In this document: in pieces, positions 29,359-55,516 of the stretch
Layout of the letters: every line of letters starts with the position of its first letter
Numbering within the stretch: position 1 is the first letter of the stretch
Assembly: GCA_963777165.1 (NCBI GenBank)
Contig: CAVZPO010000022.1
Span: 12,082 to 76,081 of the forward strand
Origin: an uncultured Chloroflexia bacterium
GTDB taxonomy: Bacteria; Chloroflexota; Anaerolineae; Anaerolineales; E44-bin32
Reading direction: 5' to 3'
Length of the DNA: 64,000 nt
Notes under the pieces: model-generated
Seen by the model: the letters and a program-made list of their open reading frames with translations, nothing else
Databases searched by the model: none
What the model was told of the DNA's origin: nothing
Translations under genes and position numbers: made by a program

Positions 29359-29552
29359 TGCCTTTTCGATGTGCCCCAGCGGGCCCGCCGCTTAGCTCCA
29401 CTCGGGAGCCGCCTTGGGCCCCAACCGGCATCCATAACGGACGCCACGACGGCCCGCTAGGGGACGTGCCCGGACCGCCAAGGAAGCGGTTCGGTCTTGG
29501 TGCGATTGGGACGCCCATCCGAATGTGCATGGGGCAACCACGCTCCGATCGT

Positions 29553-35587: not shown

Positions 35588-35878
35588 GGACGGAAACTGC
35601 CGGCCACGGCAGGCGCAATTCCGGGGACGACGTCTAAGTGGGTCTTGACCCAGCGGCGGGCACCGCAGTCGTCCGGGGAGCCGGCACACGGACTTGTGCA
35701 CTCGCAGGTGGGCGATGCGGTGCGTGGAGTCGTGGCGTTCAGCCCGGGTTACATTCGTCACTGCCTGCTGAACCGGCGTCGCGATACTCTGCCCGTGGGC
35801 TCCTCCCCGATTCAAGTTCGGCCGGGGCGAAAGGCCGTCCGGTCCACCGCCGGTCCCAGGTCCAGGCGAGAGGATGGG

Positions 35879-36400
35879 ATGATGGAAGGCAAGGTTCTGG
35901 TGGCCTATGCCACCAAGTACGGCGCCACGCAGGAGATCGCCGCGGCCATTGGCGACGCGCTGAGCAGCGCTGGGCTGAAGGTCGATGTGTTCCAGGTCGA
36001 TCGTGTGAAGGACGTCGCGACTTATCGGGCTGTCGTCCTTGGCAGCGCCGTGTATGTGGGTCAGTGGCGCAAGGAGGCGGTCGCGTTCCTGGTGGCGCAC
36101 GAGAAGGCGCTGTCCGAACGGCCGGTGTGGCTGTTCTCCAGTGGACCCTCCGGGAAGGGCGACCCGGTGCAATTGACGAGCGGGTGGAAGTTCCCCGAAG
36201 CTCAGAAGCCCATCGCCGAACGCATCCACGCGCGGGACACGGCCTTGTTCCACGGCGCACTGGATCCGGCGAAGCTCAACCTGCCCGAGAAGCTCATCCT
36301 CAAGGGGGTCAAGGCGCCCATCGGCGATTTCCGCGACTTTGAGGCGGTGCGCGCCTGGGGCCAAACCATCGCTGCGGCGCTGAAGCAACAAGGCGGATAG
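35879..36400 (+). CDS. flavodoxin-domain protein (HemG-like)
   Basis: ATG 35879 has a GAGAGGA RBS. KVLVAYATKYGATQEIA and VVLGSAVYVGQW are flavodoxin FMN-binding blocks. Confidence 0.8.
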   Translation: MMEGKVLVAYATKYGATQEIAAAIGDALSSAGLKVDVFQVDRVKDVATYRAVVLGSAVYVGQWRKEAVAFLVAHEKALSERPVWLFSSGPSGKGDPVQLTSGWKFPEAQKPIAERIHARDTALFHGALDPAKLNLPEKLILKGVKAPIGDFRDFEAVRAWGQTIAAALKQQGG

Positions 36401-40945: not shown

Positions 40946-41197
40946 CTACGCGTGCCGACCACCCCCCGACATCGCAGGGATCAATCGAACCTCGTCACCC
41001 TCGGCAAGCGGCGTGTCGACGTCGGCGATCTTGCCGTTGACGACCAACAGAATGGCATCGTCGCGGAGCGAGACGTCGAGCGCCTCCACCACCGTACGCA
41101 TCGTCGCCCCGGGCGCCAGGTCCAGCGTCAGCCGATCGACGATGCCATCCGGCGTCTCCCGCCGGAGCGTCGTATGCAGACGGACCGTCACGACCAT
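40946..41197 (-). CDS. MoaD/ThiS-family ubiquitin-like sulfur-carrier protein with C-terminal extension past the GG
   Basis: 83 aa. Contains ...LVVNGKIADVDTPLAEGDEVRLIPAMSGGGRHA*. The ATG overlaps the AOR stop by 10 nt. Confidence 0.75.
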   Translation of the reverse strand: MVVTVRLHTTLRRETPDGIVDRLTLDLAPGATMRTVVEALDVSLRDDAILLVVNGKIADVDTPLAEGDEVRLIPAMSGGGRHA

Positions 41198-42897
41198 CCG
41201 GCCACCCGATCCAGGTCGGCATCGTCGACATCGAACACGCTGTTGTGAGGCGGCAACGGCTCCTGAGTCATCCATTCTGGAATGCGGTCATCCGAGGCAT
41301 CAAAGCCGGCGGCCAGATTGAAGGCGCGCTCCAGCCGAAGTGTCTCCAACCCCAGTTCCTGCAGCACGTCATCGCCGACGCCCCAGCCATACCGACCATT
41401 GATCAGGTTGCGGATGGCGCCCGGCGCCTTGGCGAAGCCGAAGCCGCCGAAGATGCACGCGCCGAGCGTGTCGTACCCGGCCATGTTGATCTGCGCCGCA
41501 CGCGATACATCGGCTTGGATCTTCGGGTCGAGGTGGTCGATCTTGGCGCGGATCGTCAGGCCGCAGGTGTGGTCCGCACCCTGGGCCGAGGTGGCATAGG
41601 TCACACCGGTGCCTTTGATGGCGCGCGGGTCGTACGCCGGCATCGCCTGCCCCTTGACGACCGGGACGCGCCGGATGCCAAGCACGCGCCCGGTGACCGC
41701 CGCGCCCGATCCCAGGATTCGCCCGAGCGGTGTGCCGCGACGGATCTCTCCCAACAACTCCGTCGCCCGGGCCGCGTCGCCGAAGGTCATCAGCCCGGCC
41801 TGGGCTGCAACGCCCAGCGCCGCGCCGGTATCGATGGTGTCGAGCCCCAGGTCATTGATCTCCCAGTTCAGGCGCCCGATGTCGTCCAGGTTGTCGATTC
41901 CCAGATTGGCGCCGACCAGCCCGATGGTCTCGTACTCCAGGGGTGAGACGATCTTCTCCCCCTGCGGACCCCCGAAGCAGTTCGAACTCTGGATCACGCA
42001 CCCCGCCATGCAGGCGTGAGACGGCTCGCTCGTTCCGCCGCGCGACAGCATCAGGTCGCGTAACGCCTCTCCACTGATCTTGTCGATCCCCTCGAAGTCC
42101 CCGGTGGAGAAGCCCCGCGTGGGAAGGGCGCCGAAACCATGCGTCATCGACGCCAGCCCCGCCGTGCCGTAATCGCGGTAGAGGGCCGTCTGGGGATGCG
42201 CCATCACTGCCTGCGTGTACAGCTTCTGCCCGGCCTTGAACATCGCGGCGTCGACCAGGGTTGGCTTCTCCCCGCCCGCGCTGTCGATCACCATCGCCTT
42301 CAGCCGACGGGCGCCCATCACGGCGCCCATGCCGCCGCGGGCATTGATCCGCGACGGCTCGCGGTCCTTGTCCAGGTTGAGGATGCCGGAGGCAAGCAGC
42401 TGCATTTCTCCACCGGGGCCGATCAGGCTCAGGGCGACCTTGTCGCCATAGCGGCCACGCAGTTTCTCCGCCGCGGCATAGGCTCCGAGCCCGGCCAGGT
42501 CATCCGCCGGCTCGAAGCGCAATCCGTCCTTGCTCACGTGCAGCACCCACCACCCGTCGGAGGGCAGGCCCCCTTCGAGCACCAGCGCCTTGATGCCGAG
42601 GGAGACCATGTGCAATCCGGTCGTGCCCCCGGCGTTGCTCTCCTTCACGCCGCCGGTGAGCGGGCTCTTGGCGCCGACGGAGATGCGGTCGCACGACGAG
42701 ACCATGTGCCCGACAATCAAGCCCGGAGCCCAGACAAGTTTGTTGCGCGGGCCGAGCGGGTCGCAGCGCGGGGGCACTTCGTCCATGAGTATCCGGGCGA
42801 TCAGGCCGCGTCCCCCGAGACGCTGCCAGGACGGAGGCACAGGTTCGCGGCCTGTTTGCCTGTTGGCCATATCCACCCGCCAGACCCGCTCCTCCAT
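41188..42897 (-). CDS. aldehyde:ferredoxin oxidoreductase (AOR) family protein, divergent cluster motif
   Basis: N-terminal AOR domain (LGGRGLIARIL, GAKSPLTGG, SNAGG), then EYETIG..GANLGI and GLDTIDTG. The Fe-S Cys block is HACMAGCVIQSSNC rather than CxxCxxxC. GAGGAG RBS before ATG 42897. Confidence 0.85.
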   Translation of the reverse strand: MEERVWRVDMANRQTGREPVPPSWQRLGGRGLIARILMDEVPPRCDPLGPRNKLVWAPGLIVGHMVSSCDRISVGAKSPLTGGVKESNAGGTTGLHMVSLGIKALVLEGGLPSDGWWVLHVSKDGLRFEPADDLAGLGAYAAAEKLRGRYGDKVALSLIGPGGEMQLLASGILNLDKDREPSRINARGGMGAVMGARRLKAMVIDSAGGEKPTLVDAAMFKAGQKLYTQAVMAHPQTALYRDYGTAGLASMTHGFGALPTRGFSTGDFEGIDKISGEALRDLMLSRGGTSEPSHACMAGCVIQSSNCFGGPQGEKIVSPLEYETIGLVGANLGIDNLDDIGRLNWEINDLGLDTIDTGAALGVAAQAGLMTFGDAARATELLGEIRRGTPLGRILGSGAAVTGRVLGIRRVPVVKGQAMPAYDPRAIKGTGVTYATSAQGADHTCGLTIRAKIDHLDPKIQADVSRAAQINMAGYDTLGACIFGGFGFAKAPGAIRNLINGRYGWGVGDDVLQELGLETLRLERAFNLAAGFDASDDRIPEWMTQEPLPPHNSVFDVDDADLDRVAGWS

Positions 42898-42980
42898 ACC
42901 CGCTCCTCTCACACCCCGGCACGTCCAGGTCTGATCCTGTCAGGGCAGGAAGCCCTGACGTGGGATCTACCGTCACGGCA

Positions 42981-44876
42981 TCAGAGGACCCACTCCAGGT
43001 CCAGTCGTCTCAGCGTCTCCACCGTTGGGTTCCCGGTCTTCGAATCCCAACCGGCCTGCGCGTAGTATTCTTGCAGGGCCCCATCGACCTCTTCATGCGT
43101 CAGCGCCACACCGTCCGTCGGGCCTCCGCCGGTCAGCGGACGATAGAACTTGTCCGGCAGCCGGTCGGCCTCCTTGCCGATGCCCATGCGGGCGTTGAAG
43201 GCGCGCAGCATGTTCAGGCGTCGCTCGCCGATCGCCAAGAGCTCGTCGAGCGTGAAGTCTTCCCACCCGGTGGCGGCGCGCACGAACTCGACGGTTTCCT
43301 GGGGACCGTACAGCGTCCAGGCCGGCCCCCACACGAACTGACACAGAGCCGCCGTGTCGAGGAAGGAGTAGAAGTATTGCCCCTTGAGGGCGTAGCGCAC
43401 TTTCTCTGCATCCAGGGAACGCGGCGCCAGCGTATGGTCAAAGCCCATCAGCTTGAGCCGGCCCATGTACAGGTCGGAGGCACCCTCCTCGATCATCGGA
43501 TCATGCTCGGAGGACTGATGGTCGGCGCCAAAGGGGTTGACCGCATAGATCACCGCCAGCGAACGTTTCGCCTGCGGCATGTGGGCCGGCGCCTCGGCGC
43601 CCTTGACCGTGATCAGCAGTGCCTCCCCCTTCCCCAACTTCTCCGCCGCACGCTGCGAGCCCTCGGCCAGCAGGTCTCCGAATCCCTCCCGCCGGGCGAT
43701 CCCCTGCGTCAGACGGATCATGGCCCCGGCGTCGCCGAAAGGTGCCGGAAATCCGATCTCCTTGTCCGTCAGAATGCCTTTCTCGTAGCACTCCATCGCC
43801 CAGGCGACAGTCGCCCCTGTGCCGATGGTGTCGAGGCCGTACGCATTGCAGATCTGGTTCGCCAGCGAGACCGCCTCAAGCTCCTTGACGCCGCAGTACG
43901 ATCCGAAGGTGCCGATGGTCTCGTACTCCGGACCGCCGTAGCGACGCTCGACAGGGGTCCCTTCCCATTCCGTCTCCACGACGCGCTTGCAGCGTACGGC
44001 ACATGCATAGCAGGTGTCGTTGGCTTTGAGGATCGTGTCGGCCATCGTCTCGCCCTGCAAGCCCTCAAAGTGCTCGAATTGCCCGGCGTTGTAGTTGAAG
44101 GTCGGAAGGGTGCCGCTGAAGTGCTGGAAGGAAACGACGCCAGCCGTGCCGTACTTCTGCAGCCCGAGGACGTCACCGTTGTTCTCGATGTCGGCAGCCC
44201 CGGCCTTCGCCATCGCGCTGATGCGCCTGGCATCGGCCCAATCCAGCCGCTTGCTCTTGCCCCGTGCCACGACGGCCTTCAGGTTCTTCGAGCCCATGAC
44301 TGCGCCCAAGCCCGTCCGCCCGTTGGCGCGGTTGGCCATGTTGATGATCGCCGCCAGCCGGACCAGCTTCTCCCCCGCCGGCCCGCACTGGGCGATTTCG
44401 ATCTTGTCATCGCCGAGCTCCGCCTTGAGCGCCTCGTCCACCTGGGACGTCGTCTTGCCCCACAGGTGATCGGCGGGCCGCAGCTCGGCCTGCCCGTCGT
44501 GCAGCCACAGGTAGACGGGGGATGCCGCCTTTCCGGTGATCACCAACCCGTCGAAGCCGGCAAAACGCATCTCGGCCGGGAAGAAGCCGCCGCTCTGCGC
44601 ATCCCCGATGCCGTCGACGAGTGGCGACAGCGCGTTGGCGCACATGCGGCTCTGCCCGGAGATCGGCGCCCCGGTCAGCAGGCTGACAAACATGGTCAGT
44701 ACGTTCTCCGGACCGAGCGGATCGATGCCGGGGCGGGTGTGCTTGAGGATGTAGTACATCCCCATCGCCGAGCCGCCGAAGTACCGACGGTAGAACGACT
44801 CGGGCGGCGTCTCCATCTCCACCACGCCGTTCGTCAGATCGACGTGTGCAATCCGGCCGGTGCGTGCGTCTGGCAT
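42981..44876 (-). CDS. aldehyde:ferredoxin oxidoreductase (tungsten/molybdopterin AOR family)
   Basis: AGGAGG lies 6 nt before ATG 44876. Contains RIAHVDLTNG, FGGSAMGMYY, the canonical CYACAVRCKR [4Fe-4S] motif, EYETIGTFGSYCG and GLDTIGTG. Confidence 0.9.
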   Translation of the reverse strand: MPDARTGRIAHVDLTNGVVEMETPPESFYRRYFGGSAMGMYYILKHTRPGIDPLGPENVLTMFVSLLTGAPISGQSRMCANALSPLVDGIGDAQSGGFFPAEMRFAGFDGLVITGKAASPVYLWLHDGQAELRPADHLWGKTTSQVDEALKAELGDDKIEIAQCGPAGEKLVRLAAIINMANRANGRTGLGAVMGSKNLKAVVARGKSKRLDWADARRISAMAKAGAADIENNGDVLGLQKYGTAGVVSFQHFSGTLPTFNYNAGQFEHFEGLQGETMADTILKANDTCYACAVRCKRVVETEWEGTPVERRYGGPEYETIGTFGSYCGVKELEAVSLANQICNAYGLDTIGTGATVAWAMECYEKGILTDKEIGFPAPFGDAGAMIRLTQGIARREGFGDLLAEGSQRAAEKLGKGEALLITVKGAEAPAHMPQAKRSLAVIYAVNPFGADHQSSEHDPMIEEGASDLYMGRLKLMGFDHTLAPRSLDAEKVRYALKGQYFYSFLDTAALCQFVWGPAWTLYGPQETVEFVRAATGWEDFTLDELLAIGERRLNMLRAFNARMGIGKEADRLPDKFYRPLTGGGPTDGVALTHEEVDGALQEYYAQAGWDSKTGNPTVETLRRLDLEWVL

Positions 44877-44908
44877 CGGAGCCTCCTGTACCCGTGACCC
44901 AATTCTAC

Positions 44909-46169
44909 CTAGGCTTGCAGCGCCGCCTGGAACTTTTCGAGCCCGTCCTCGATCTGGCTGGCGTTGACCACCAGCGGCGGGATCCAGCGGATTACGTTTT
45001 CGTACGATCCGCAGGTGAGCAGCAGGAGCCCCTGTTGGTAGGCGGCCTTGGCCACCGCTTTGGCGCGATCGGTCCACGGCTCGCCGTGGCGCGTCGGTGA
45101 ATTCGCTGGCGATCATCAGGCCGCGGCCGCGCACATCGCCGATCGCCGGGTGCTGTTTCTGCAGCTGCCGCAGACCACCCAGCAGCACTTCTCCCATGGC
45201 GGCGGCGTTCTCGATCAACTTCTCGTCGTGCATGAGCTGGATGGTCGCCACGGCAGCGGCGCAGGCGACGGCGTTGCCGCCGTAGGTGCCGCCGTGCGAG
45301 CCCGGGATCCACTTCGCCATGAGGTCCCGCCGGGCCGCCAATCCTGCCAGTGGCATCCCGGAGGCCATCCCTTTGGCCATCACCAGGATATCCGGGACCA
45401 CACCGCTGTACTCGATCGAGAACCACCTGCCCGCCCGGCCGAAACCGGCCTGCACCTCATCCGCCACCAGCAGGATGCCGTAGTGATCGCAGACCTCACG
45501 CAGCCCTTGGAGAAACGCGTCGGGAGCCGGAACGTAGCCGCCCTCACCGAGAATCGGCTCGATGACGATGGCGGCCGTCTCGTCCGGCGCGGTCTGGGTC
45601 TTGAGCAGCAGCTTGAGCTCGCGCAGGCAGAAGCGAACGGTCGTCGCCTCATCCCATCCGTAGTAGTAGGCATAGGGGAAAGGCGCCACGAAGACACCGC
45701 TGGCGAGGGGGGCATACCCGGAACGGTAGATCGATTTCGAGGTGGTCATGGCCATCGTGGCGTTGGTGCGGCCATGGAAAGACCCCTGGAAGACGATCAC
45801 ATTCGGCCGCCGGGTGGCATGCCGCGCCAGCTTCACCGCGCCTTCGATGGCCTCGGCACCGGAGTTGGTGAAAAAGAACGTGTCCAGAGGCTTCGGCACA
45901 ATGGGCAGGAGCTGTTGGACCAGGCGCAACATGGGTTGATGCGCCACCAACGCTGCCTGTCCATGGAGAAGCTTGGCGGCCTGCTCCTGAATGGCCTGGA
46001 CGACGCGCGGGTGGGAGTGGCCGGTGTTGGTGACCCCGATCCCGCTGGTGAAATCAAGATAGCGTCGGCCGGCGGTATCGATCAGGTACGGTCCCTCGCC
46101 GTGATCGACCACCAGCGGCCAGGCGCGGTTCCACACGGGGGCGAGGTGCGATAGACCTTCAGGTTCCAT
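44909..46169 (-). pseudogene. class-III aminotransferase, 4-aminobutyrate aminotransferase-like, frame broken near 45084-45097
   Basis: DFTSGIGVTNTGHSHP, FFTNSGAEAIEGAVKLAR, FQGSFHGRT, LLVADEVQAGFGRAGRWF and the PLP-Lys in MAKGMASG. After ...MIASEFTD the true tail RHGEPWTDRAKAVAKAAYQQGLLLLTCGSYENVIRWIPPLVVNASQIEDGLEKFQAALQA* is in the +1 frame (stop 44909-44911). One extra G in GAC(G)CGCCAC. Confidence 0.85.
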
Positions 46170-46199
46170 GCGTACCCTCTCCTTCAGGCCGCCGAGGCT

Positions 46200-47696
46200 T
46201 CAGAAGGTCCGCGACCATTCCTTCGGCCAGCGCTCGATCACTACCTTCTTCTGCGTGAAGAACTCGACCGCATCCCAGCCCTGGCCATGCAGGTCCCCGA
46301 AGAAGCTCTCCTTCCAGCCGCTGAACGGGAAGAAGGCCATCGGCGCAGCAATCCCGACGTTGATGCCGATGTCTCCGGCCTCGGCCTCGTAGCGGAACCG
46401 GCGCGCCGCCGCGCCGCTGCTGGTGAACAGGCAGGCCATGTTTCCGTGCGGGCGATCGTTCACCAGCCCCAAGGCCTCGTCGAGGGTCGCGGCGTGCATC
46501 ACACCCAGCACCGGCCCGAAGATCTCCGTCGTGGCCAGCTGCCCTGCCGGCGGCACATCGGTCAGGATCGTCGGCCGCACGAAGCTCCCCCGCTCGTACC
46601 CGGGGATTCGCGGCCGGCGCCCATCAATCGGCAACCCGGCCCCTTCCGCCAGTCCAGCGCCGATCAACCCCTCGATCCTTTGCTGGCTCTCCGGCGAGAT
46701 CACCGGCCCCATCTGCACGCCCTCGTCCAGTCCGTAGCCGGTCACCCGGCTTGCGGCGGCGTCGCAGATCATCTCGGGGAACCACTCGCGCGCCTCGCCG
46801 ACGGTGATGGCCACCGAGGCCGCGGCGCAGCGCTGCCCTGCGCATCCGAAGGCGCTGTCGGCAGTGATCCGGGTCGTCATCTCCCGGTCGGCGTCCGGCA
46901 TGATCACCAGCGGGTTCTTCGCCCCGCCCTGACACTGGGCACGCTTGCCCTGCTCCGCCGAGCGGCGGTAGAGGTATCGTGCCACCGGCGTGGAGCCCAC
47001 GAAGCTGATCGCGCGGATCGCCGGGTGATCCAGGATCGCATCGACCGTCTCAGCGGCTCCGTTGACCAGGTTGACCACGCCGCGCGGGACGCCCGTCTGT
47101 TCGATCAGGCCGAAGATGCGCTGCATCGTCAGCGGCACCTTCTCGGACGGTTTGACGATGTAGGTGTTGCCGCAGGCGATGGCGTAGGGCATGAACCAGA
47201 ACGGGATCATGCCCGGGAAGTTGAAGGGACAGATGGCGGCGCACACGCCCACAGGCTGGCGGATCATCGTCTCGTCGAACCCGCGGGCGATGTCCTCCGA
47301 GTGGTAGCCCTGCATCAGGATCGGCATGCCGCAGGCGATCTCGACGTTCTCGATCGCCCGGCGCATCTCGCCGCGCGCCTCGTCCAGCGTCTTGCCGCAC
47401 TCGATCGTGATCAGGCGCGACAGCCCTTCCAGATCCTCTTCCAGAAGCGCCTTGAGCTTGAACAGGTACTGGACGCGTTCGGGGGCCGGCGTCCGCCTCC
47501 ATTCCGGAAGCGCCCGCGCCGCCGCCTCGGCCGCGCGTGCCACATCGGCTGCCGTCGAGAGCGGCGTCCGCCCGATCCGCTCGGCCGTCGCCGGGTTGAC
47601 GACGTCGACGAAGTCGCCGCCGCTGGATGCCACCCAGGCGTGGTCGATGAAGTTCAGCACCTGTCCCGGGATGCCCTCAGGCTGTGGCGATGGCAT
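46200..47696 (-). CDS. mmsA: CoA-acylating methylmalonate/malonate-semialdehyde dehydrogenase
   Basis: 498 aa from ATG 47696. Contains [43 protein letters not shown] (catalytic Cys), and the C-terminal [16 protein letters not shown]...FFTQKKVV typical of MmsA/IolA. Confidence 0.9.
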
Positions 47697-49014
47697 CGGT
47701 GATCTCCAGCGCCCGCTCGATGATCGCCAGGCCCTCGTCCACTTGCGCCGCGGTGATGCACAGCGGCGGCACGGCAAAGACAACGTTGTGGAAGATGAAG
47801 GTGAACAAGCCTTGGCTGCGCAGGAATGCGCCGACTTCGGTGAGCGGGTCGATGGGTTCACGGGTGGATTTGCTCTTGACGATCTCCAGGGCGGAGAACA
47901 GGCCGATGTACCTCACGTCACCCACCGAGGCGTGCCGGGCCTTGATCTCCTCGAGCCGCCGGCCCAGGTGCTTCCCGACCCGCGCGGCGTTCTCGAGCAG
48001 GCCGTCGTCCTCGTACGCCTGGAGTGTGGCGACGCCCGCGGCGCAAGCCAGGGGGTGGCCACTGTAGGTCAGCCCGCACCAGAGCATCTTGTCCTCGAAG
48101 TAGTCGGCGATCGGTTGGCTGACGATCACCGCCCCGAGGGGCACGTAGCCGGCGGTGATGCCCTTGGCGGTGGTGATCATGTCGGGCACCACGTTCCAGT
48201 GATCGACGGCGAACCACTTCCCGGTGCGGCCCCAGCCGCTCATCACCTCATCCGAGATGAGCAGGATGCCATGGCGGTCGCAGATCTCGCGCACCCGGGG
48301 CCAGTAGTCGTCGGGCGGCACGATCAGCCCATTGGTCCCGGTGACGCCCTCCATGATGATCGCTGCCACGCGGTCGGTTCCTTCATAAGACAACACTTCC
48401 TCGACGTGGGCGATGCACTCGCGGTGGCAGGTCTCCCGCGTCCAGCCGAAGGGACATCGGTAGCAGAATGGATCGAGGAAATGCACCACGCCGGGGATCG
48501 TCGGCTCGGCCGGGAGACGCCGGTAGTCCCCGGTCAGCGCCAGCGCGCCCTGCGTGGCGCCGTGATACGAGCGGTAGCGGGCCAGGATCTTGTGCCGGCC
48601 GGTGTAGAAGCGGGCGATCTTGATGGCGTTCTCATTCGCCTCCGCGCCGCCCAGACAGAAGAACGTCTTCTTCAGGTTTCCGGGGGCGACCTCGGCGATC
48701 TTCTTCCCCAGGAGCCCGCGCGGCTCGGTGGCCATGCCCGGATGGGCGTAACACAGCCGGGCGGCCTGCTCCTGGATTGCGCGAACCACCTTCGGGTGCT
48801 GATGGCCGATGTTGAGGTTCATCAGCTGCGACGAGAAATCCAGATAGCGCTTCCCGTCCGCGTCCCAGAAGTAGATGCCCTCGGCCCGGGTGATGGGGAT
48901 CGGCGCAGTCGCCGATTGGATCGACCAGGAGAACAGGGTGTATTCCCGGTTCATCCGCACCATCTCTTCAGAGCTCATCGCTGTCGTGGCTGCCACCTTC
49001 CCCTCCGCAAGCAT
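47677..49014 (-). CDS. class-III (omega-)aminotransferase, beta-alanine/taurine:pyruvate type
   Basis: [63 protein letters not shown] and the PLP-Lys in TTAKGITAG. Start 49014 (alternative 48978). Confidence 0.85.
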
Positions 49015-49040
49015 GTGAGTGTCCGCCGTGCGGACGCCGC

Positions 49041-50345
49041 CTACTTCCTGACGCTCCGGGCGGCATCCGCCATCACGTTCAGCGTCTCGTCGATGTCGGC
49101 ATCCGTGTGTGCATAGCACAGGAACCAGGGCTCGCGCGGATCGTGATCGGGCATGACCCCGCGTTCCATCGCCGCCTCGACCAGGCGCAGGTACAACTCC
49201 TTGTCCGACGCGTCCCACTCCCGCTGACAGGTCACAGTCTCTACGCCGAAGGCGAAGGAGAACATGGACGGATGCCCGCGAAAGGAGACCGGCAGGCCCG
49301 CCGCCTCGAACACCTGCTTCAGGCCGTCCATCAGCCGTCGACCGCGCAGGGCGATCGTCTCCAGGATCGGGTGCCTCTGGAGCAAGTCGAGCGTGGCATA
49401 GGCGGCCGCCACGCCGGGCTTGTTGTTGTTGAACGTCCCCCCCTGTGAGACCCCATGCCCGATGAGGCTCATGATCTCCCGCCTTCCGCCCAGTGCCGCC
49501 AGCGGGTAGCCGTTGGCCAGCGACTTGGCGTAGGTCGCCAGGTCGGGCTGCAATCCGAAGGCCTCCTGCGCCCCGCCGCGCGCGATGCGGAATCCGGTCT
49601 TGACCTCGTCCAGGATGAAGACGATGCCGTACTCGTCGCATTTCTGCCGCACGAACTGCAGGAACCCGGGCAGCGGCTCGATCGCGCCGCAGTTGTCCTG
49701 CATGGGCTCAGTGATGATCGCGGCGATCTCGTGGCCGACGCGTCTCAGCGCGTTCTCCAGCGCCTCGAAATCATTGAACGGCAAGGTGACGATCAGCGAC
49801 TGCAGGCAGTTCGGCAGACCCGAGCTGGCCGGCACGGGGATCGGGCTGCGCCGGCTGCCGTAGGTCTCCGAAGGAGCATAGGTCGAGAAAAGCAGGTAGT
49901 CCTGAAAGCCGTGGTAGTTGCCTTCGAATTTGACGATCTTCTCCCGGCCGGTGTACGCCCGGGCGACCCGCAGCGCGTGCATCGTCGCCTCGGTCCCCGA
50001 GCATGCGAAACGCACCATCTCGACCGCCGGACACATGGCGACGATCATCTCGGCCACCGCCACTTCGAGCTCGCCGGTCATGGCGAAGAGCGACCCCTGG
50101 TCGATCTCGGCGTGGACTTTCGCATCCACCTCCGGGTAGGCGTGCCCGAGGATGATCGGACCGAACGCAAGCCGATAGTCGATGTACCGGTTCCCATCCA
50201 CATCCCACAGGTAGCCGCCTTTGGCCTTCTGGACATAGGGCGTGATCCCCTCGCCCCAGTAGCGGAAGTTGGAGTGGACTCCCAGCGGCATCACGGCTGA
50301 TGCCCGGCGCTGCATGGCGATGCTCTTGTCGTGCAAGTTCGTCAC
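49041..50345 (-). CDS. class-III aminotransferase, glutamate-1-semialdehyde 2,1-aminomutase-like
   Basis: GTG 50345 has an AAGGAGAAGG RBS. Contains MPLGVHSNFRYW, YIDYRLAFGPIILGHAYP, FACSGTEATMHALRVARAYTGR, FILDEVKTGFRIA and the PLP-Lys in YAKSLANG. Confidence 0.85.
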   Translation of the reverse strand: MTNLHDKSIAMQRRASAVMPLGVHSNFRYWGEGITPYVQKAKGGYLWDVDGNRYIDYRLAFGPIILGHAYPEVDAKVHAEIDQGSLFAMTGELEVAVAEMIVAMCPAVEMVRFACSGTEATMHALRVARAYTGREKIVKFEGNYHGFQDYLLFSTYAPSETYGSRRSPIPVPASSGLPNCLQSLIVTLPFNDFEALENALRRVGHEIAAIITEPMQDNCGAIEPLPGFLQFVRQKCDEYGIVFILDEVKTGFRIARGGAQEAFGLQPDLATYAKSLANGYPLAALGGRREIMSLIGHGVSQGGTFNNNKPGVAAAYATLDLLQRHPILETIALRGRRLMDGLKQVFEAAGLPVSFRGHPSMFSFAFGVETVTCQREWDASDKELYLRLVEAAMERGVMPDHDPREPWFLCYAHTDADIDETLNVMADAARSVRK

Positions 50346-50494
50346 GGCCTTCTCCTTGCCAGTCTCGTCGCGCGCCCGCCGTACCCACCACCGGATCCGG
50401 CGGCTCGGCCCGGTTCGCAAGCGGGAGCGGCAGGCCTGTCGTCAAGCATCTCCCTCACGCCGGGCAGAAAGGCACTCCAGGCGCGAGGGGCGAC

Positions 50495-51858
50495 CTAAAG
50501 CGCCTTCTTCAACTCCACCAGCGTGTCGGACAGGCGATCGATCACTTGATCCAGCACTTCGAACGGGATGACCAGCGGCGGTTCGATGCGGACGGTGTGA
50601 GCATTGGTGAGCGTGCCGCCGACCAACACGCCGCGTTTGAACAGCCCGGCCGCCACCTTGTAGCCGATCTCCGGGTTGTGGAAGTGCATCCCAATGAGCA
50701 GGCCGCGGCCGGTGATACGGTCGTAGATCTCCGGATACTGGGCGGCGAGCGCCTCCAGCTTCGGGATCAGGTAGGCACCCTTGGCAGCCGCCTGCTCCCA
50801 CAGCTTCTCCCGCAACGTGAATCGAATGGCGGCGATCGCCGCGCTGCAGGCCAGACGCCCCGCCCCCGGTGGTGGTGGTGTGGATGAAGGGGTTGGGCTG
50901 CATCATGACCTGCCAGATCTCCTCCGTCGCGCAGAAGGCGCTGATCGGCATCACGCCGCCGCCCAGCGCCTTGGCCGCCGCCAGGATATCCGGGACGACT
51001 TCCCAGTGATCGACGCCCCACAGTTTGCCGGTCCGTCCCATCCCGGTCTGCACTTCATCAGCGATGAGCAGGACGCCGTAGTGGCGTGTCAGCTCGCGCA
51101 GCCGCGGCCAGTAGTCGTCCGGCGGGACAATCGCTCCGGCCTCGCCCTGGATCGGCTCCATGAGCACGCCGGCAATGTCGACCCCGACCGTCCGGCAGAT
51201 CTCGAGCTGCCGCTCCACGGCATCCGCCTCCCCGAAGGGCACGTGGTAGACGGGCCCGCCGTACAGGATCCCGGCCGGCTGCCGGTAGTCGGCCTTGCCC
51301 ATCATCGACAGCGAGCCCATCGTCTTACCGTGGAAGGCCTTGACGGCGACGATGAAGCCGCTCTTGCGCGTGTAGAGCTTGGCCAGCTTGATGGCGCCTT
51401 CGATGGCCTCGGTCCCGCTGGCGCAGAAGAAGCTGTACTTGATATCGCCCGGCGTGATCTGCGCCATCAAACGCGCCAGCACGCCGCGCAGGGGGTCGAT
51501 CAGCTCCTGGCTGGGCATCGGGCGTGCGCAGGGTCAGTTGGGCGCGCACCGTGTCGACGATTTCAGGGTTCGCCCAGCCGTGCACGAGCAGGCCGTATCC
51601 GCCGAGGCAGTCGATGTACTCCCGCCCGAGGACGTCGCGGAACAGCGCCCCACTGCCCGTCCATTCGGTCGCCGCCCAGTCGCCCGCCTCGGTCACGGAC
51701 TTGCGGTACTCCAGCCAGCCGCGGTTGAAGTACTCGGCGAAGTTGAGTTTGGATTCCTCGATGATCTGCTTGCCCAAGGACTCCGGCACCGAAGGCTGGT
51801 GGATCAGTTCCACCCAGCGGTCGGCGTATGTCAATGCATCGTCGAGCGATTGAGGCAC
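50495..51858 (-). pseudogene. patA: putrescine aminotransferase (PatA/YgjG-like), two frame breaks at homopolymers (51520-51522 and 50858-50861)
   Basis: Collinear with my memory of E. coli PatA: EYFNRGWLEYRKSVTEAGDWAATEW, YIDCLGGYG, SQELIDPLR, YSFFCASGTEAIEGAIKLAK, IADEVQTGMGRTGK, AAKALGGGVMPI, NPFIHTTT.GG, then (other frame) LACSAAIAAI...TIRIEPPL. GGAGG RBS before GTG 51858. Confidence 0.85.
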
Positions 51859-51865
51859 GTCGAGC

Positions 51866-51901
51866 CTCCGTAGGAGGCGGGCGGGCCGCGGCCCGCCCGC
51901 C
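51866..51901 (-). promoter_or_regulatory. 26-bp perfect GC palindrome overlapping an anti-SD/SD hairpin in front of patA
   Basis: GGCGGGCGGGCCGCGGCCCGCCCGCC lies at 51876-51901. On the mRNA its 3' end runs into CCUCC-UAC-GGAGG, where GGAGG is the patA Shine-Dalgarno sequence. Confidence 0.35.
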
Positions 51902-51916
51902 AGACGGCTATCCGCG

Positions 51917-53126
51917 TTAGCCCATTTCCTTCATCCCGTAGGGGAAGTCATATTGGGCCATGCGCTGCATGAACGGGTCGGGATCGAAGGCTTCCGGCCC
52001 GAAGACCCCGGCGCCCTTCCAGATCCCCGCCTCGAGCAGTTCCATGGCGATCACCGGGTTGACCGCCGTCTGCCATACCACCGCCTGCACCCGATACTTC
52101 TTCATGCAGGTCTCGTTGTCCGCCACCTGGTACAGGTAGACCTGACGCGGTCGTGCCGTCCTTGCGGCCTTTCACCCACGTCCCGGCGCAGGTCTTGCCG
52201 AACATGCGGTCCCCCAGGTGCGCCGGGTCCGGCAAGCAGGCGGCAACGACATCGCGTGGGGCGACTTTGACGCCGCCGACTTTGATCGGGTTCTTGTTGT
52301 CCAGGCCGAGCATCTTGATCGTCTTGAGCACGCGGATGAAGTCATCGCCCAGGCCGTACTTGAAGGTTACCCGCTTGCACTTGACCCAGCGCGGCACGAG
52401 CAGCACTTCCTCGTGTTCGACGTTGACGCACCCCTGCGCGCCGATGCCCTCCGGGAACTCGAAGGTCTCGAGCTCGGAGAACGGCTCGGTCGTGTACCAG
52501 CCACGGGCCTTCTCCCAGATGATGGGCGGATTGAGGCATTCCTCAATCGTGGTCCAGATCGAAAAGTTCGGCGCGAACTCGTAGCCCCGCACCTCGAGGT
52601 TGGCGCCGTCGCGCACGTTGATCTCGTCGATCTCGTCGAACAGGTGCTTCTCGGCGTACTTGGCGAAGACATCCGCCATGCCCGGTTCGACCCCCATGCC
52701 GAGCAGGGCGAGCAGACCCTTCTTCACCCACTTCTCGGCGCGCTCGAACTGGTAGTCGCCCAGCTTCACGCCCGGCTCCTGGAACGGCCGGGTGGGATGC
52801 GGCGACGACAGCGTCATGGCCATGTCCATGTAGGTGCAGCCGTACTGGTACGCGGCGTCGAAGATCTTCTCGTTGAACAGCGGCTCGACGGCGTTCATGA
52901 TCAGGTCGACCTTGTGCTTGCGCGCCAGCTCGACGATGCGCGCCTTGTTGCCGGCGTCGATCGCCTCGATCGGGAACTTCTTCGGGTCGCGCAGCTTGCC
53001 CCGCACCTCACGGCAGCGCTTGGGATTGATGTCCGTCAGCACCATGCGCTCCAGCCATGGAGCCTTCTGCGCCACCACGGCGATCGCTTCGCCGACGCCC
53101 CCCGTCCCTACCAGTAGCACTCTCAT
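51917..53126 (-). pseudogene. saccharopine dehydrogenase-family NAD(P)-dependent oxidoreductase, frame broken near 52152-52157
   Basis: Rossmann N-terminus MRVLLVGTGGVGEAIA. Then FNEKIFDAAYQYGCTYMDMA, GVEPGMADVFA, NVEHEE. ...GTWVKGRKDG then continues in another frame as RPRQVYLYQVADNETCMKKYRVQAVVWQTAVNPVIAMELL...MKEMG* (stop 51917-51919). Confidence 0.85.
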
Positions 53127-53210
53127 GTTTGCCTCCCGGGCTCGAGGGCCCTCGTGCCATCGCCCCCGGGGCGAGGGATCCCCTCGTCCCGAGTCAGGTT
53201 CAAGCCACAG

Positions 53211-54800
53211 CTACGCGTCTGCGCCCTCAGGGTTGAATGGATCGACGTCCGGCACCCCCGGTTTGAGGGTCCGCCGGATCGGGAAATACAACAGGGCGCC
53301 GATCGCCATGGCCGCCAGCGCCAGCCACAGCGAGCTCAGGCCTTCCTCCTGGATCTGACTGTAGATGGCCAGCAGGATGATCGCCGTCGGCCCGAGCGTC
53401 ACCAGCAGCATCCCCAGCCACCCGCCGGGCACTTTCTGGCGCGGCAGGTCGGGCCGGGTGATGCGCAGCTTCCACATCGCCCCGAACTCCGCCAGGATCA
53501 CGAGCGTCTGCAGGAAGACATCGACGACGACCAGGAAGGCGAATGCCTGCAGCGAGAACAGCGTGAAGGCAAAGGCGCAGACCAGGATCGCCACCCAGGG
53601 CGTGCCGTAGCGCGGGTGGACACGCACCAGCCACTTGGGCATCATCCCGTCCTCGGCCAGCGCGAAGGGGATACGCGATCCGCCCAGGCTGTTGCCGATG
53701 AACAGGCCGATCATGCTCAGCACGGCGGCGACGGTCAGGAACCCGCCGAGCACTCGCGGCAGGGCGCTGTCGGGGCCGGTCAGCTTGGCGGCAATGGCAT
53801 GTCCGATGTCGGGGAACTCCCATCCGACGGCACTCGTCGGATCGACGCCCCAGGCCTCGTACTGCTCGGGCGCCACCCCGTATTCCTCGAGGACGACGCC
53901 GACGCCCTCGCCGTCGGCGTACTCCTCGATCCCCCACGCCTGATAGCGCCCGCCCTCACCGCCGCCCCCGTACAATCCGGCCAGCGTCGGCAGGGCGTAG
54001 GTGGCGACGGCGGCGATCAAGACCAGCAGCATGGCGCGCGGGTAGGTCTTGCGCGGGTTGACGATCTCATCGCCGGCGGCCGCCGGCAGTTCCCAGCCCA
54101 TGTAGTTCCACATCACGACAAACAGCCCGACGCTCAGCGCGCCCCCCAGCGTCTCGCCCTCGGGCAGGAACGGCAGCGACGCCGTCGTGCCGCTCTGGAT
54201 CCAGACGATGAATCCCAGGACGGTCATCACCACCAGCGGCGCCATCACCAGCACGCCCAGCCAGCTGGTGGTCAGCCCGGCCAGGCGCGCGCCGCGCACC
54301 TGGAGCGCCGACATGGCCCAGATGATGATGGCGGCGACCAGGAACGACATGAATCCGCCGCTCAACTCAAGACCGCCGAGCGTGATGCCGTTCCGGATCG
54401 CGGGGAAGAAGTACCCGAGGTAGTAGGCGGCCAGCACCGGATAGATGGCCACGTCGACGAACGACATGATCCAGTTCATCCAGCCGGCCATGAAGCCGGA
54501 GAAGGGACCGAACGCCTGTTTGATCCAGTGGTAGTAGCCGCCCTCGACCGGCATCATCGAGTTGAGCTCGCGCACCATCAACATGTTCGGCAGGCTGAAG
54601 ATCAGCGGGGTGATGATGATCAGCAGCATCGCCAACCCGGGCCCCGACCACCCCACCAGCGCCTCGATGCCGAAGGACCCGCCCGAGACGGTGAAGTAGA
54701 TCAGGCCGAACAGGGGCAAGAGGGTCAGCTCGCGTTTGAGCTTGCGTCGCTCGGCGACAATCTCCACGGCGGCCACGTTCGATCCGGATTGTGCCATCAT
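53211..54800 (-). CDS. APC-superfamily amino acid / polyamine permease
   Basis: 529 aa with about 12-13 TM segments. N-terminal LTLLPLFGLIYFTVSGGSFGIE... and MPVEGGYYHW. Strong AGAGGAGGAG RBS. Confidence 0.9.
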   Translation of the reverse strand: MMAQSGSNVAAVEIVAERRKLKRELTLLPLFGLIYFTVSGGSFGIEALVGWSGPGLAMLLIIITPLIFSLPNMLMVRELNSMMPVEGGYYHWIKQAFGPFSGFMAGWMNWIMSFVDVAIYPVLAAYYLGYFFPAIRNGITLGGLELSGGFMSFLVAAIIIWAMSALQVRGARLAGLTTSWLGVLVMAPLVVMTVLGFIVWIQSGTTASLPFLPEGETLGGALSVGLFVVMWNYMGWELPAAAGDEIVNPRKTYPRAMLLVLIAAVATYALPTLAGLYGGGGEGGRYQAWGIEEYADGEGVGVVLEEYGVAPEQYEAWGVDPTSAVGWEFPDIGHAIAAKLTGPDSALPRVLGGFLTVAAVLSMIGLFIGNSLGGSRIPFALAEDGMMPKWLVRVHPRYGTPWVAILVCAFAFTLFSLQAFAFLVVVDVFLQTLVILAEFGAMWKLRITRPDLPRQKVPGGWLGMLLVTLGPTAIILLAIYSQIQEEGLSSLWLALAAMAIGALLYFPIRRTLKPGVPDVDPFNPEGADA

Positions 54801-54944
54801 GCTCCTCCTCTGAAGCCTTCAGGTGTTCGCAGCGCGGATGCCCGCGTCAAGAATTGTTCTCGTGTTCCGGGTTGCCGTTCTCCGGCCCGGTGGACCGCCA
54901 AGGCCCGCCTTCCGCAGCCACGCGGTGTTCTCTCCAGCGCCGAA

Positions 54945-55454
54945 TCAATTCACCCCACCGGCCTTGTCTTCCCGGACGGGCTTCTCCATGCAACCGGATC
55001 TTGGGATGCGCCACTGATACACGTCTTTGAGGACCATGGGAACGATCACGGTGGAAGTCTTACGCACACCGGGGATGTTGGCGATGACCTCGGTGGTGAA
55101 CCGATAGACCTCGGCATTGTCTCGAGCCACGACTTGCGTGCTGATGTCGGTCTCCCCCATCGAGCAGCCGACGTAGCTGACGCATTCGTACTCGGTCAAC
55201 TTGCGGGCGACGTCGAGGATGCTGGCGGCATCGACTTGAATGAAGACGTCGGCGGTGACGCCGTATCCGAGCGCCCGTGGATTCGGGATGGCGCCGACGT
55301 GCACCAACCCGGCGGCGATCATCCGATCCAGACGATAGCGGACAACGCGTTCCGAGACCGCCCCCAGCCGGCGTGCAATCTCGGCACACGGCATCCGCCC
55401 ATCCTCGATGAGCAGGTCGACGATTCGGCGATCGACTTCGTCGATTTCCGACAT
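54945..55454 (-). CDS. Lrp/AsnC family transcriptional regulator
   Basis: D.VDRRIVDLLIEDGRMPCAEIARRLG.VSERVVRYRLDRM (HTH_AsnC) plus a RAM-like C-terminal domain. Confidence 0.9.
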   Translation of the reverse strand: MSEIDEVDRRIVDLLIEDGRMPCAEIARRLGAVSERVVRYRLDRMIAAGLVHVGAIPNPRALGYGVTADVFIQVDAASILDVARKLTEYECVSYVGCSMGETDISTQVVARDNAEVYRFTTEVIANIPGVRKTSTVIVPMVLKDVYQWRIPRSGCMEKPVREDKAGGVN

Positions 55455-55487
55455 ATTTCACTTCAGAACTGTTGGGAATGTACATCA

Positions 55488-55516
55488 AAGTTAGCATGGC
55501 TGGAGTTTCGAGTCAA
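55488..55516 (-). promoter_or_regulatory. sigma70-like promoter of the Lrp gene in an AT-rich divergent region
   Basis: Minus strand: TTGACT (55516-55511), 17-nt spacer, TAACTT (55493-55488). Confidence 0.4.

Follow-up and report, generated by a model that had tools for sequence, protein, structure and literature searches.

The window analysed here, a 64,000-nucleotide stretch of DNA from an uncultured Chloroflexota bacterium, carries between positions 40946 and 55516 a run of eleven co-directional genes on its minus strand, among them four class-III aminotransferases and two members of the aldehyde:ferredoxin oxidoreductase (AOR) family. A preliminary description of this DNA had listed eleven such genes, separated by short gaps or overlaps, and had proposed that they encode an anaerobic, ferredoxin-linked degradation of polyamines or omega-amino acids. 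Translation of open reading frames (ORFs) and hidden Markov model (HMM) scans recovered all eleven, running from 55454 down to 40946, and nearly all of the family calls were upheld by Pfam, NCBIfam and PDB searches. We hold with moderate confidence that these genes would form an Lrp-headed operon of a Limnocylindria-like bacterium for the uptake and catabolism of polyamine-type amines, with the AORs as its aldehyde oxidisers. The most likely substrates would be putrescine, including putrescine derived from agmatine, and probably triamines of the spermidine or norspermidine type; that the process is anaerobic and linked to ferredoxin, as proposed earlier, is something we still infer rather than observe. 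From the first gene to the last, the cluster comprises:

54945-55454, minus strand: Lrp/AsnC-family transcriptional regulator, first gene of the cluster (Pfam HTH_AsnC-type and AsnC_trans_reg).
53211-54800, minus strand: APC-superfamily amino acid/polyamine permease, 529 aa, ORF intact (Pfam on the orthologue in locus L001).
51917-53126, minus strand: saccharopine-dehydrogenase-fold (SDH-like) enzyme, about 401 aa, with a 1-nt insertion near 52154 (Pfam Sacchrp_dh_NADP and Sacchrp_dh_C).
50495-51858, minus strand: PatA/YgjG-type putrescine aminotransferase, about 453 aa, with 1-nt insertions near 51522 and 50855 (NCBIfam, PDB).
49041-50345, minus strand: "GntE-like" amine:aldehyde transaminase with the fold of glutamate-1-semialdehyde aminomutases (GSAMs), 434 aa (NCBIfam NF041362 GntE; GSAMs in the PDB).
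47677-49014, minus strand: omega-aminotransferase of the PRK06062 subfamily, 445 aa, its 3' end overlapping the start of MmsA by 20 nt (NCBIfam NF004718).
46200-47696, minus strand: CoA-acylating malonate/methylmalonate-semialdehyde dehydrogenase MmsA, 498 aa (TIGR01722; Pfam Aldedh).
44909-46169, minus strand: GabT-type 4-aminobutyrate aminotransferase, 419 aa, with a 1-nt insertion near 45090 (PDB, NCBIfam).
42981-44876, minus strand: AOR1, single-subunit AOR-family enzyme, 631 aa (Pfam AFOR_N and AFOR_C).
41188-42897, minus strand: AOR2, divergent AOR-family protein, 569 aa (Pfam AFOR_N and AFOR_C).
40946-41197, minus strand: small MoaD/ThiS-fold protein of 83 aa whose gene shares 10 nt with the end of AOR2 (Pfam ThiS, 40 bits; MoaD matches weak).

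Intergenic distances range from -20 to +149 nt, with two overlapping gene pairs. The four class-III aminotransferases are mutually 26-40% identical and the two AORs share about 30% identity; both sets are distinct subfamilies, not recent duplicates. To place the cluster in a wider context, we scanned one genome per species with the GntE-like protein as anchor, which gave 22 Chloroflexota loci at 51% identity or higher and one Anaeromyxobacteraceae locus, and examined related loci (labelled L001 and so on) by tblastn with cluster and reference proteins and through their annotated contigs. Four further genomes, each of a different species (L003, L004, L005 and L006), show the same eleven-gene order, a recurrence far beyond chance; of these, L005 is a Candidatus Aquidulcis metagenome-assembled genome (MAG) from the class Ca. 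Limnocylindria. A core hexad consisting of the Lrp, GntE-like, omega-aminotransferase, MmsA, PatA and SDH-like genes is conserved much more widely than the full order.

The preliminary description overlooked the four single-base insertions listed above, which break three of the eleven genes. In a three-way alignment with the relatives L006 (94.6% nucleotide identity over 20 kb) and L003/L001 (90%), all four sites carry one extra base in the window that neither relative has. Private frame-breaking indels within the 14.5-kb cluster number four in the window, about 30 in L006 and about 12 in L003, all at different positions. Every gene is intact and of the expected length in L004 and L005, whose MEGAHIT/SPAdes-style contig names are of the short-read type (SDH-like 401-402 aa; PatA about 453 aa, in extended ORFs of 533-535 codons; GabT 419 aa; AOR1 631 aa; AOR2 569 aa), and GcvT, beyond the cluster, is likewise frameshifted near 62180. 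Since the insertions are private to the window, the relatives are error-laden at other sites, L004 and L005 are intact and GcvT is also hit, we conclude that the four frameshifts are consensus errors of an error-prone assembly and that the genes are not pseudogenes. The source is most likely a long-read MAG, given the "contig_NNNN" naming in the nearest relatives, and apparent pseudogenes in such assemblies can be consensus errors. A decaying cluster, with real frameshifts and a pathway that no longer functions in this organism, might be read from four frame-breaking insertions in three of eleven genes, two of them outside homopolymer runs; the pattern of private indels in all three sequences is, however, typical of consensus error, the frames downstream of the insertions are still fully conserved as protein, and we rejected this scarcely credible reading on the strength of the three-way alignment and the intact assemblies. 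We likewise rejected a genuine GabT-AOR1 fusion, as the 1062-aa product of the GabT ORF running into AOR1 is a read-through created by the insertion near 45090. Around the GcvT frameshift (61387-64000, minus strand), the aminomethyltransferase gene is split, and one open frame runs from the C-terminal part of an upstream SHMT domain through a linker of about 200 residues into the N-terminus of GcvT, which is either a natural fusion or another read-through artefact.

An Lrp homologue heads most related loci, at 34-99% identity overall and 46-99% in the GntE-anchored loci. The window permease has no NCBIfam match; its orthologue in L001, 98% identical, matches Pfam AA_permease_2/AA_permease, and in relatives its position is taken by PotABCD or SSF transporters. 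For the PatA-like protein the best PDB match is the Escherichia coli putrescine aminotransferase 4uox (419 bits, with the next unrelated entry at 241), and the top NCBIfam match is PRK11522, which the repaired window protein hits at 570 bits and the intact L004 orthologue at 559, below the cutoff of 612. The GabT-like protein best matches E. coli GabT (1sf2, 322 bits) and PuuE (320 bits) in the PDB and stays below the cutoffs of both the TIGR00700 model for 4-aminobutyrate (GABA) aminotransferases (400-412 bits, cutoff 506.65) and PRK08117 (526, cutoff 574). These best structural matches bear out the PatA-type and GabT-type identities first assigned. MmsA passes TIGR01722 at full length (534.8 bits, cutoff 448.5), and the omega-aminotransferase, whose gene immediately precedes MmsA in almost every related locus, passes NF004718/PRK06062 (568 bits, cutoff 472). 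The initial designation of the latter as a pyruvate-type enzyme did not hold, its closest solved relative being the taurine:2-oxoglutarate aminotransferase 6jix (402 bits).

Conservation within the cluster is highest for the GntE-like transaminase, with more than 120 clusters at 90% identity, mostly from Chloroflexota, that are at least 71% identical to it. It had been called GSA-aminomutase-like, which agrees with its best PDB matches, all GSAMs at about 311 bits; it passes the NF041362 model for GntE (659 bits, cutoff 525), however, and not the HemL model TIGR00713 (392.8 bits, cutoff 527.3). We rejected the gene as the organism's HemL on score and context. We also rejected it, on context, as a true guanitoxin gene: none of the other gnt genes (GntA-J, including the arginine hydroxylase, enduracididine cyclase and retro-aldolase) lies among its neighbours in any locus examined, and the GntE name is for this reason almost certainly an over-annotation. 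GntE itself aminates an aldehyde that lacks an alpha-carboxylate, in the step after a retro-aldol cleavage (PMC10367076), and by analogy the amine-aldehyde reaction type is probably common to both enzymes. The PGAP pipeline labels a Chloroflexota homologue "guanitoxin biosynthesis transaminase GntE", and a homologue in L098 (3652-5070, 58% identical, 572 bits) also exceeds the cutoff. The naming of Chloroflexota transaminases by NF041362 is thus probably a systematic mis-annotation, and a model that tags a common Chloroflexota transaminase as a cyanotoxin enzyme could mislead environmental surveys for toxin genes.

For the SDH-like enzyme, the saccharopine-dehydrogenase-like assignment of the preliminary description stands at the level of the family and can be narrowed. 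The only NCBIfam match is carboxynorspermidine synthase NF043000 (219-233 bits, far under the cutoff of 800), and the PDB matches are 4ina, 4rl6 and 8deb, of the carboxyspermidine dehydrogenase (CASDH) type; none of these is a saccharopine or lysine dehydrogenase. The enzyme therefore appears to belong to the carboxy(nor)spermidine dehydrogenase family. All characterised members, CASDH and carboxynorspermidine dehydrogenase (CANSDH), act reductively, in biosynthesis (PMC11999265). No carboxyspermidine decarboxylase was found in any locus examined, and the direction that we consider for the SDH-like enzyme, inferred from its neighbourhood, would be catabolic.

The polyamine theme of the preliminary description gains support from the homologous clusters. 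PotABCD polyamine transporter genes lie inside or beside nine of them (L007, L008, L012, L013, L017, L025, L084, L143 and L145), with PotA passing TIGR01187 (408 bits, cutoff 356); L017 and L025 each have such an operon, divergently transcribed, just downstream of the AOR and GntE-like genes. In L005, genes for agmatine deiminase (TIGR03380, 563 bits in L084, cutoff 382) and putrescine carbamoyltransferase (TIGR04384, 522 bits, cutoff 500) are placed together between PatA and the GntE-like gene; in L084 the pair comes immediately behind the GntE-like gene, and in L095 it is likewise inside the homologous cluster. An agmatine deiminase also flanks the cluster in L010 and L083. Together, the transporter and agmatine genes provide evidence, independent of the cluster enzymes themselves, that points to polyamine handling with putrescine as one entry point.

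Might the substrates instead be something other than C3/C4 polyamines, either lysine-derived C5 compounds (cadaverine, 5-aminovalerate and glutarate semialdehyde, in which case lysine or saccharopine would be the substrate of the SDH-fold enzyme) or beta-aminoisobutyrate or taurine? PatA- and GabT-type enzymes accept C5 homologues, MmsA also takes methylmalonate semialdehyde, the Pfam-defined SDH fold includes lysine and saccharopine dehydrogenases, and the nearest solved relative of the omega-aminotransferase acts on taurine; in addition, a gene resembling succinate-glutarate CoA-transferases adjoins the AOR in L025, and the formaldehyde:ferredoxin oxidoreductase (FOR) of Pyrococcus furiosus binds glutarate. 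We nevertheless regard such substrates as improbable, because the relatives embed agmatine deiminase, putrescine carbamoyltransferase and PotABCD at scores over or near curated cutoffs, because the SDH-like enzyme matches carboxy(nor)spermidine dehydrogenases, and because none of the loci showed a gene for lysine decarboxylase or for the handling of sulfoacetaldehyde.

Several further genes recur around the homologous clusters. A trio consisting of a second APC permease, a metallophosphoesterase-like protein of about 315 aa and a protein of about 271 aa with no Pfam match lies inside or beside the cluster in L004 (14272-17727) and in L002, L016, L086, L092, L130 and L143. In the distant Anaerolineae loci L018, L021 and L025, a C45-family autoproteolytic acyltransferase/hydrolase follows the AOR/GntE-like pair (for example at 11362-12423 in L025), and the CaiB-type succinate-glutarate CoA-transferase-like gene of L025 (6554-7834) lies ahead of the AOR. 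A type III CRISPR-Cas system (Cas1, Cas2, Cas6, RAMP and Csm4) is found just past the AOR2-ThiS end in L089/L090 (14823-21698), a contig from a digester or sediment metagenome.

Both AORs contain the AFOR_N and AFOR_C domains at E-values between 1e-55 and 1e-114, which places them in the AOR family, and in alignments both retain the EYE, GADH and YGTA motifs. AOR1 most closely matches P. furiosus AOR (PfAOR; 1aor, 380 bits) and has the canonical CxxCxxxC motif with its distal cysteine together with EYE, GLDTI and GADH; when its clade is aligned with AOR2, some 35 additional residues follow GADH. The best PDB match of AOR2, which covers Pfam profile positions 6-346 of 385, is 9mqx_D (229 bits). 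Around residues 295-310, AOR2 reads "PSHACMAGC" where PfAOR has "PCYACPIGC", so that in the alignment a serine replaces the first of the [4Fe-4S] cysteines, which in PfAOR are C288, C291, C295 and C494. This serine and the length of 568-569 aa are kept in L005 and L012, a further cysteine lies seven residues downstream in the window and L005 or four residues downstream in L012, and the C-terminus is about 35 residues shorter, a feature conserved in orthologues. These features point to an AOR clade with an altered Fe-S site; the clade is widespread in Chloroflexota (more than 120 clusters at 90% identity). The second-shell catalytic residues of PfAOR are Glu313, His448, Tyr427 and Thr243 (PMC12096430); its second-shell tyrosine ("PAYDPR") is kept in AOR2, and the AOR1 clade aligns a histidine at this position ("APAHMPQ").

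Neither the window cluster nor the annotated related loci contain genes for the poly-ferredoxin subunit AorA or the FAD subunit AorC, and AOR1 and AOR2 are therefore, as far as gene content can indicate, single-subunit enzymes of the archaeal type, encoded by a mesophilic member of the Chloroflexota. At the C-terminus of the MoaD-like protein, SGG precedes a tail of 0-4 residues among the orthologues compared (window, L001, L005, L088 and L089), the tail being GRHA in the window and absent in L005; proteins with a tail would need to lose it before the GG end is exposed. The gene comes after AOR2 or after an aldehyde dehydrogenase (ALDH) in related loci, and its product is a probable pterin-cofactor maturation factor. 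MoaD-like aorD/aorE genes adjoin the aor genes of Aromatoleum aromaticum, where they presumably encode such a factor (PMC6365974).

The preliminary description had suggested testing whether the AOR and aminotransferase neighbourhood is conserved, and we found a recurrent link in several arrangements. An AOR is present in 13 of the 22 GntE-anchored Chloroflexota loci, in four arrangements: GabT-AOR1-AOR2-MoaD in the clade of the window; SDH-AOR1-like in L084 and L008; GabT-(aminotransferase)-AOR2-like upstream of Lrp in L012; and, in L017-L019, L021, L023 and L025 and similarly in L024, an AOR with only about 38% identity to AOR1 that directly precedes a Sacchrp_dh-family gene, a GntE-like gene or both. 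Loci anchored on AOR2 repeat the association at about 68% identity, with aminotransferases (AT) in the order AT-AT-ALDH-SDH-SSF-AOR-AT-AOR2-ThiS in L088 and, in L089/L090, an AOR followed by Lrp-AT-SSF-SDH-APC-AT-AOR2-ThiS; the GabT-AOR2-MoaD triplet is conserved at 60-68% identity. In a metagenome scan anchored on AOR1, at least one orthologous core gene accompanied the AOR in 28 of 80 loci, and in 20 of the 44 loci of at least 8 kb. With a few AORs per genome of several Mb, an AOR would fall within 10 kb of a given gene by chance about 1% of the time on a rough estimate, and because the observed frequency lies far above this, the association with the cluster genes is real; it is not exclusive.

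The AORs had also been proposed to occupy the niche of the NAD(P)-dependent dehydrogenases that normally oxidise the aldehyde intermediates. Support for this comes from L093, L094, L098 and probably L099, where a generic NAD(P) ALDH lies between AOR1 and MoaD, in the slot of AOR2 (L093 3215-4690, L098 9846-11270; the best NCBIfam match is of the lactaldehyde dehydrogenase type, under its cutoff). The Anaeromyxobacteraceae homologue has ALDHs and no AOR. Both observations fit a pathway in which AOR and ALDH can stand in for each other. AOR and an aminobutyraldehyde-dehydrogenase-like ALDH coexist elsewhere, in L017, L018 and L025, so the replacement is not strict.

The same distribution bears on a second explanation, in which the transaminases, MmsA and the SDH-like enzyme form the catabolic module, the AORs and the MoaD-like protein are a neighbouring unit for broad-specificity aldehyde detoxification, and NAD(P) ALDHs encoded elsewhere carry out the main oxidation. 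Such a unit would account for the core hexads without an AOR in several genomes, for the roughly 55% of longer AOR1-clade loci without any core gene and for the coexistence of AOR and ALDH just described, and it would agree with the usual role of AORs according to reviews (PMC12096430) and with the A. aromaticum enzyme, which can take over from the NAD-dependent aldehyde dehydrogenase and serves only as its backup (PMC6365974). We consider it unlikely, given that AORs stand beside cluster genes in four independent orders and in the window overlap their neighbours or lie 32-83 nt from them, that the GabT-AOR2-MoaD triplet is conserved, that some loci have an ALDH in place of AOR2, and that about 50% of loci show the neighbourhood against the chance estimate of about 1%.

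Returning to an operon in which the AORs oxidise polyamine-derived aldehydes, the gene families, synteny and polyamine context described above suggest the following steps. The permease would import the amine, and the CASDH-family SDH-like enzyme, working in the oxidative direction, would cleave a triamine at its secondary amine to give a diamine and an amino-aldehyde. The PatA-type transaminase would convert putrescine to 4-aminobutanal, and the GSAM/GntE-type transaminase a second amine, such as 1,3-diaminopropane, to its aldehyde. AOR1, which neighbours the SDH-like gene in L084, L008 and L088, would oxidise the amino-aldehydes to GABA or beta-alanine. The GabT-type enzyme would then make succinate semialdehyde, which AOR2, adjoining GabT in most related loci and usually followed by MoaD, would oxidise to succinate, while the PRK06062 transaminase would turn beta-alanine into malonate semialdehyde for conversion to acetyl-CoA by MmsA. 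Being single-subunit enzymes, the AORs would pass their electrons to a free ferredoxin encoded elsewhere, and the MoaD-like protein would help to build their pterin cofactor. The acid/aldehyde couple has a very low potential; oxidation by AOR would therefore be effectively irreversible and could pull an unfavourable amine dehydrogenation. A precedent for AOR-family enzymes acting on omega-carboxy semialdehydes is P. furiosus FOR, which was crystallised with bound glutarate and is thought to oxidise glutaric semialdehyde (PMC12096430).

A reordering of these steps, with the transaminase first, then the AOR and then the SDH-like enzyme, is equally compatible with the gene content. More tentatively, the triad of CASDH-family enzyme, GntE/GSAM-type transaminase and AOR, found with polyamine transporters, might be an undescribed route for dismantling spermidine-type triamines, a suggestion we consider less likely than not. 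This route would dispense with flavin amine oxidases, the spermidine dehydrogenase SpdH and gamma-glutamylation. One possible order begins with cleavage by the SDH-fold enzyme, with the AOR pulling the reaction through irreversible oxidation of the amino-aldehyde. In the other possible order, the transaminase and then the AOR would turn the aminopropyl end into a carboxyethyl group, giving a putreanine-like acid, and the CASDH-like enzyme might then cleave this N-carboxyethyl diamine to putrescine and malonate semialdehyde for MmsA.

Run in reverse, the same enzymes could in principle be biosynthetic, with AORs reducing succinate, GABA and beta-alanine with reduced ferredoxin, the transaminases aminating the products and the SDH-like enzyme condensing an amino-aldehyde and a diamine to a triamine. 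The reversibility of the transaminases and the reductive chemistry of every characterised CASDH and CANSDH agree with this direction. However, the homologous clusters embed binding-protein-dependent uptake systems and the agmatine deiminase pathway, a catabolic route that yields ATP; decarboxylation by MmsA is effectively irreversible; and the decarboxylase expected of carboxyspermidine synthesis is missing from every locus. A biosynthetic role is therefore highly improbable. AORs are able to reduce acids, a reaction that demands a very low potential and low pH (PMC6365974).

A number of observations weigh against a dedicated role of the AORs in polyamine catabolism. Limnocylindria have been described as aerobes, and archaeal-type AORs are oxygen-sensitive. 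AOR2 is without one canonical Fe-S cysteine, and neither a ferredoxin nor a tungstate-transporter gene is present in the cluster, its flanks or the 64-kb window. Over half of the AOR1-clade genes have no polyamine genes nearby, the hexad stands without an AOR within 10 kb in L002, L007, L083 and L086, and loci of the L017/L025 type hold an AOR and an aminobutyraldehyde-dehydrogenase-like ALDH side by side. PatA, GabT and the SDH-like enzyme all score under their NCBIfam equivalog cutoffs, and the specific substrates named for two enzymes, the SDH-like one and the GntE-like transaminase, are guesses. Finally, AORs are often broad-range detoxifying enzymes (PMC12096430).

A full-text literature search returned no paper linking AOR enzymes to polyamine, putrescine or amino-aldehyde metabolism, and a 2025 review of tungsten enzymes, in which the word "polyamine" does not occur, ties none of the AORs it covers to polyamines (PMC12096430). 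A search of the literature on the physiology of Limnocylindria yielded no useful information. Few bacterial AOR-family enzymes have a defined physiological role, and a role in polyamine catabolism, if true, would give two widespread Chloroflexota AOR clades a concrete set of substrates. It would also add a ferredoxin-linked variant to polyamine catabolism and a catabolic function to a branch of the carboxyspermidine dehydrogenase family, so far known from biosynthesis only. With either order of the triad, low-potential ferredoxin would be generated from polyamine carbon in Chloroflexota that are abundant in soil, sediment and digesters.

Beyond the cluster, the flanking genes encode an ATP-grasp ligase, DUF4153, PEBP and AHSA1 proteins, a flavodoxin-domain protein and a PfkB kinase; we rejected them as members of the system because they are unrelated, and the boundaries drawn in the preliminary description are therefore right. 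The remainder of the window holds housekeeping or transport genes, and because the window is GC-rich (about 66% GC), its raw ORF lists are noisy. Counts from a promoter and terminator scan of the cluster matched the shuffled expectation and were uninformative. A Flavodoxin_5 protein about 4.5 kb from the cluster on the opposite strand (35588-36400, plus strand) is the sole candidate low-potential carrier in the window, and nothing ties it to the cluster. Between 26000 and 32000, the GC fraction drops to 0.59-0.61, compared with about 0.67 elsewhere, and ORFs with high GC3 are few; this stretch, which includes a PMT_2 glycosyltransferase-like gene (27760-29391, minus strand), may be a foreign island.

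Among known systems, the E. coli putrescine transaminase pathway (PatA/YgjG, PatD/YdcW, GabT or PuuE, and GabD or Sad) is close in chemistry: the PatA- and GabT-type proteins of the window best match the E. coli enzymes, and the implied sequence would likewise run from putrescine through 4-aminobutanal, GABA and succinate semialdehyde to succinate. It differs in that no PatD/GabD-type NAD(P) dehydrogenase occurs in the cluster or the 64-kb window, so that the absence first reported holds for the scope covered; two AORs and a MoaD-like protein are present instead, and the cluster further includes a module for beta-alanine, an amine transaminase that is the third of its kind and an enzyme of the CASDH family. 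Spermidine and beta-alanine catabolism in Pseudomonas aeruginosa proceeds through the spermidine dehydrogenase SpdH, the polyamine:pyruvate transaminase SpuC, KauB and BauABCD. The overall logic is similar, in that a triamine is cleaved, diamines are transaminated, amino-aldehydes are oxidised, and beta-alanine is taken through malonate semialdehyde to acetyl-CoA by an omega-transaminase and an MmsA-type enzyme. In the window, however, the candidate cleaving enzyme has an NAD(P)-type saccharopine-dehydrogenase fold rather than being an FAD/haem SpdH, the candidates for aldehyde oxidation are AORs and not KauB, and there are no gamma-glutamylation genes. The agmatine deiminase pathway, both genes of which would feed putrescine into the homologous clusters of L005, L084 and L095, is absent from the cluster of the window itself.

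Compared with the tungstoenzymes of the AOR family (P. furiosus AOR and FOR, A. aromaticum AorABC), the window proteins have the same two-domain AFOR architecture and, in the alignment, the EYE, GADH and YGTA motifs. A MoaD-like gene beside the AOR is the only accompanying gene in common with A. aromaticum, whose AorA and AorC have no counterpart in the cluster, and P. furiosus AOR differs from AOR2 in the first Fe-S cysteine and the length of the C-terminus, and from AOR1 in having tyrosine in place of histidine. The SDH-like enzyme has its fold in common with CASDH, CANSDH and CAPADH, and solved CASDH-type structures are its best PDB matches, whereas its scores against the family model lie far under the equivalog cutoff and its gene is never beside a carboxyspermidine decarboxylase, always occurring with transaminases and transporters and often with an AOR. 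The GntE-like transaminase passes the NCBI equivalog model for guanitoxin GntE, and yet sits in a polyamine catabolic context across Chloroflexota and in one Myxococcota genome. Taken together, the chemistry proposed for the cluster is that of the known putrescine transaminase and beta-alanine routes, from which it would differ in the aldehyde-oxidising enzymes, the candidate C-N cleaving enzyme and the extra GntE-like transaminase.

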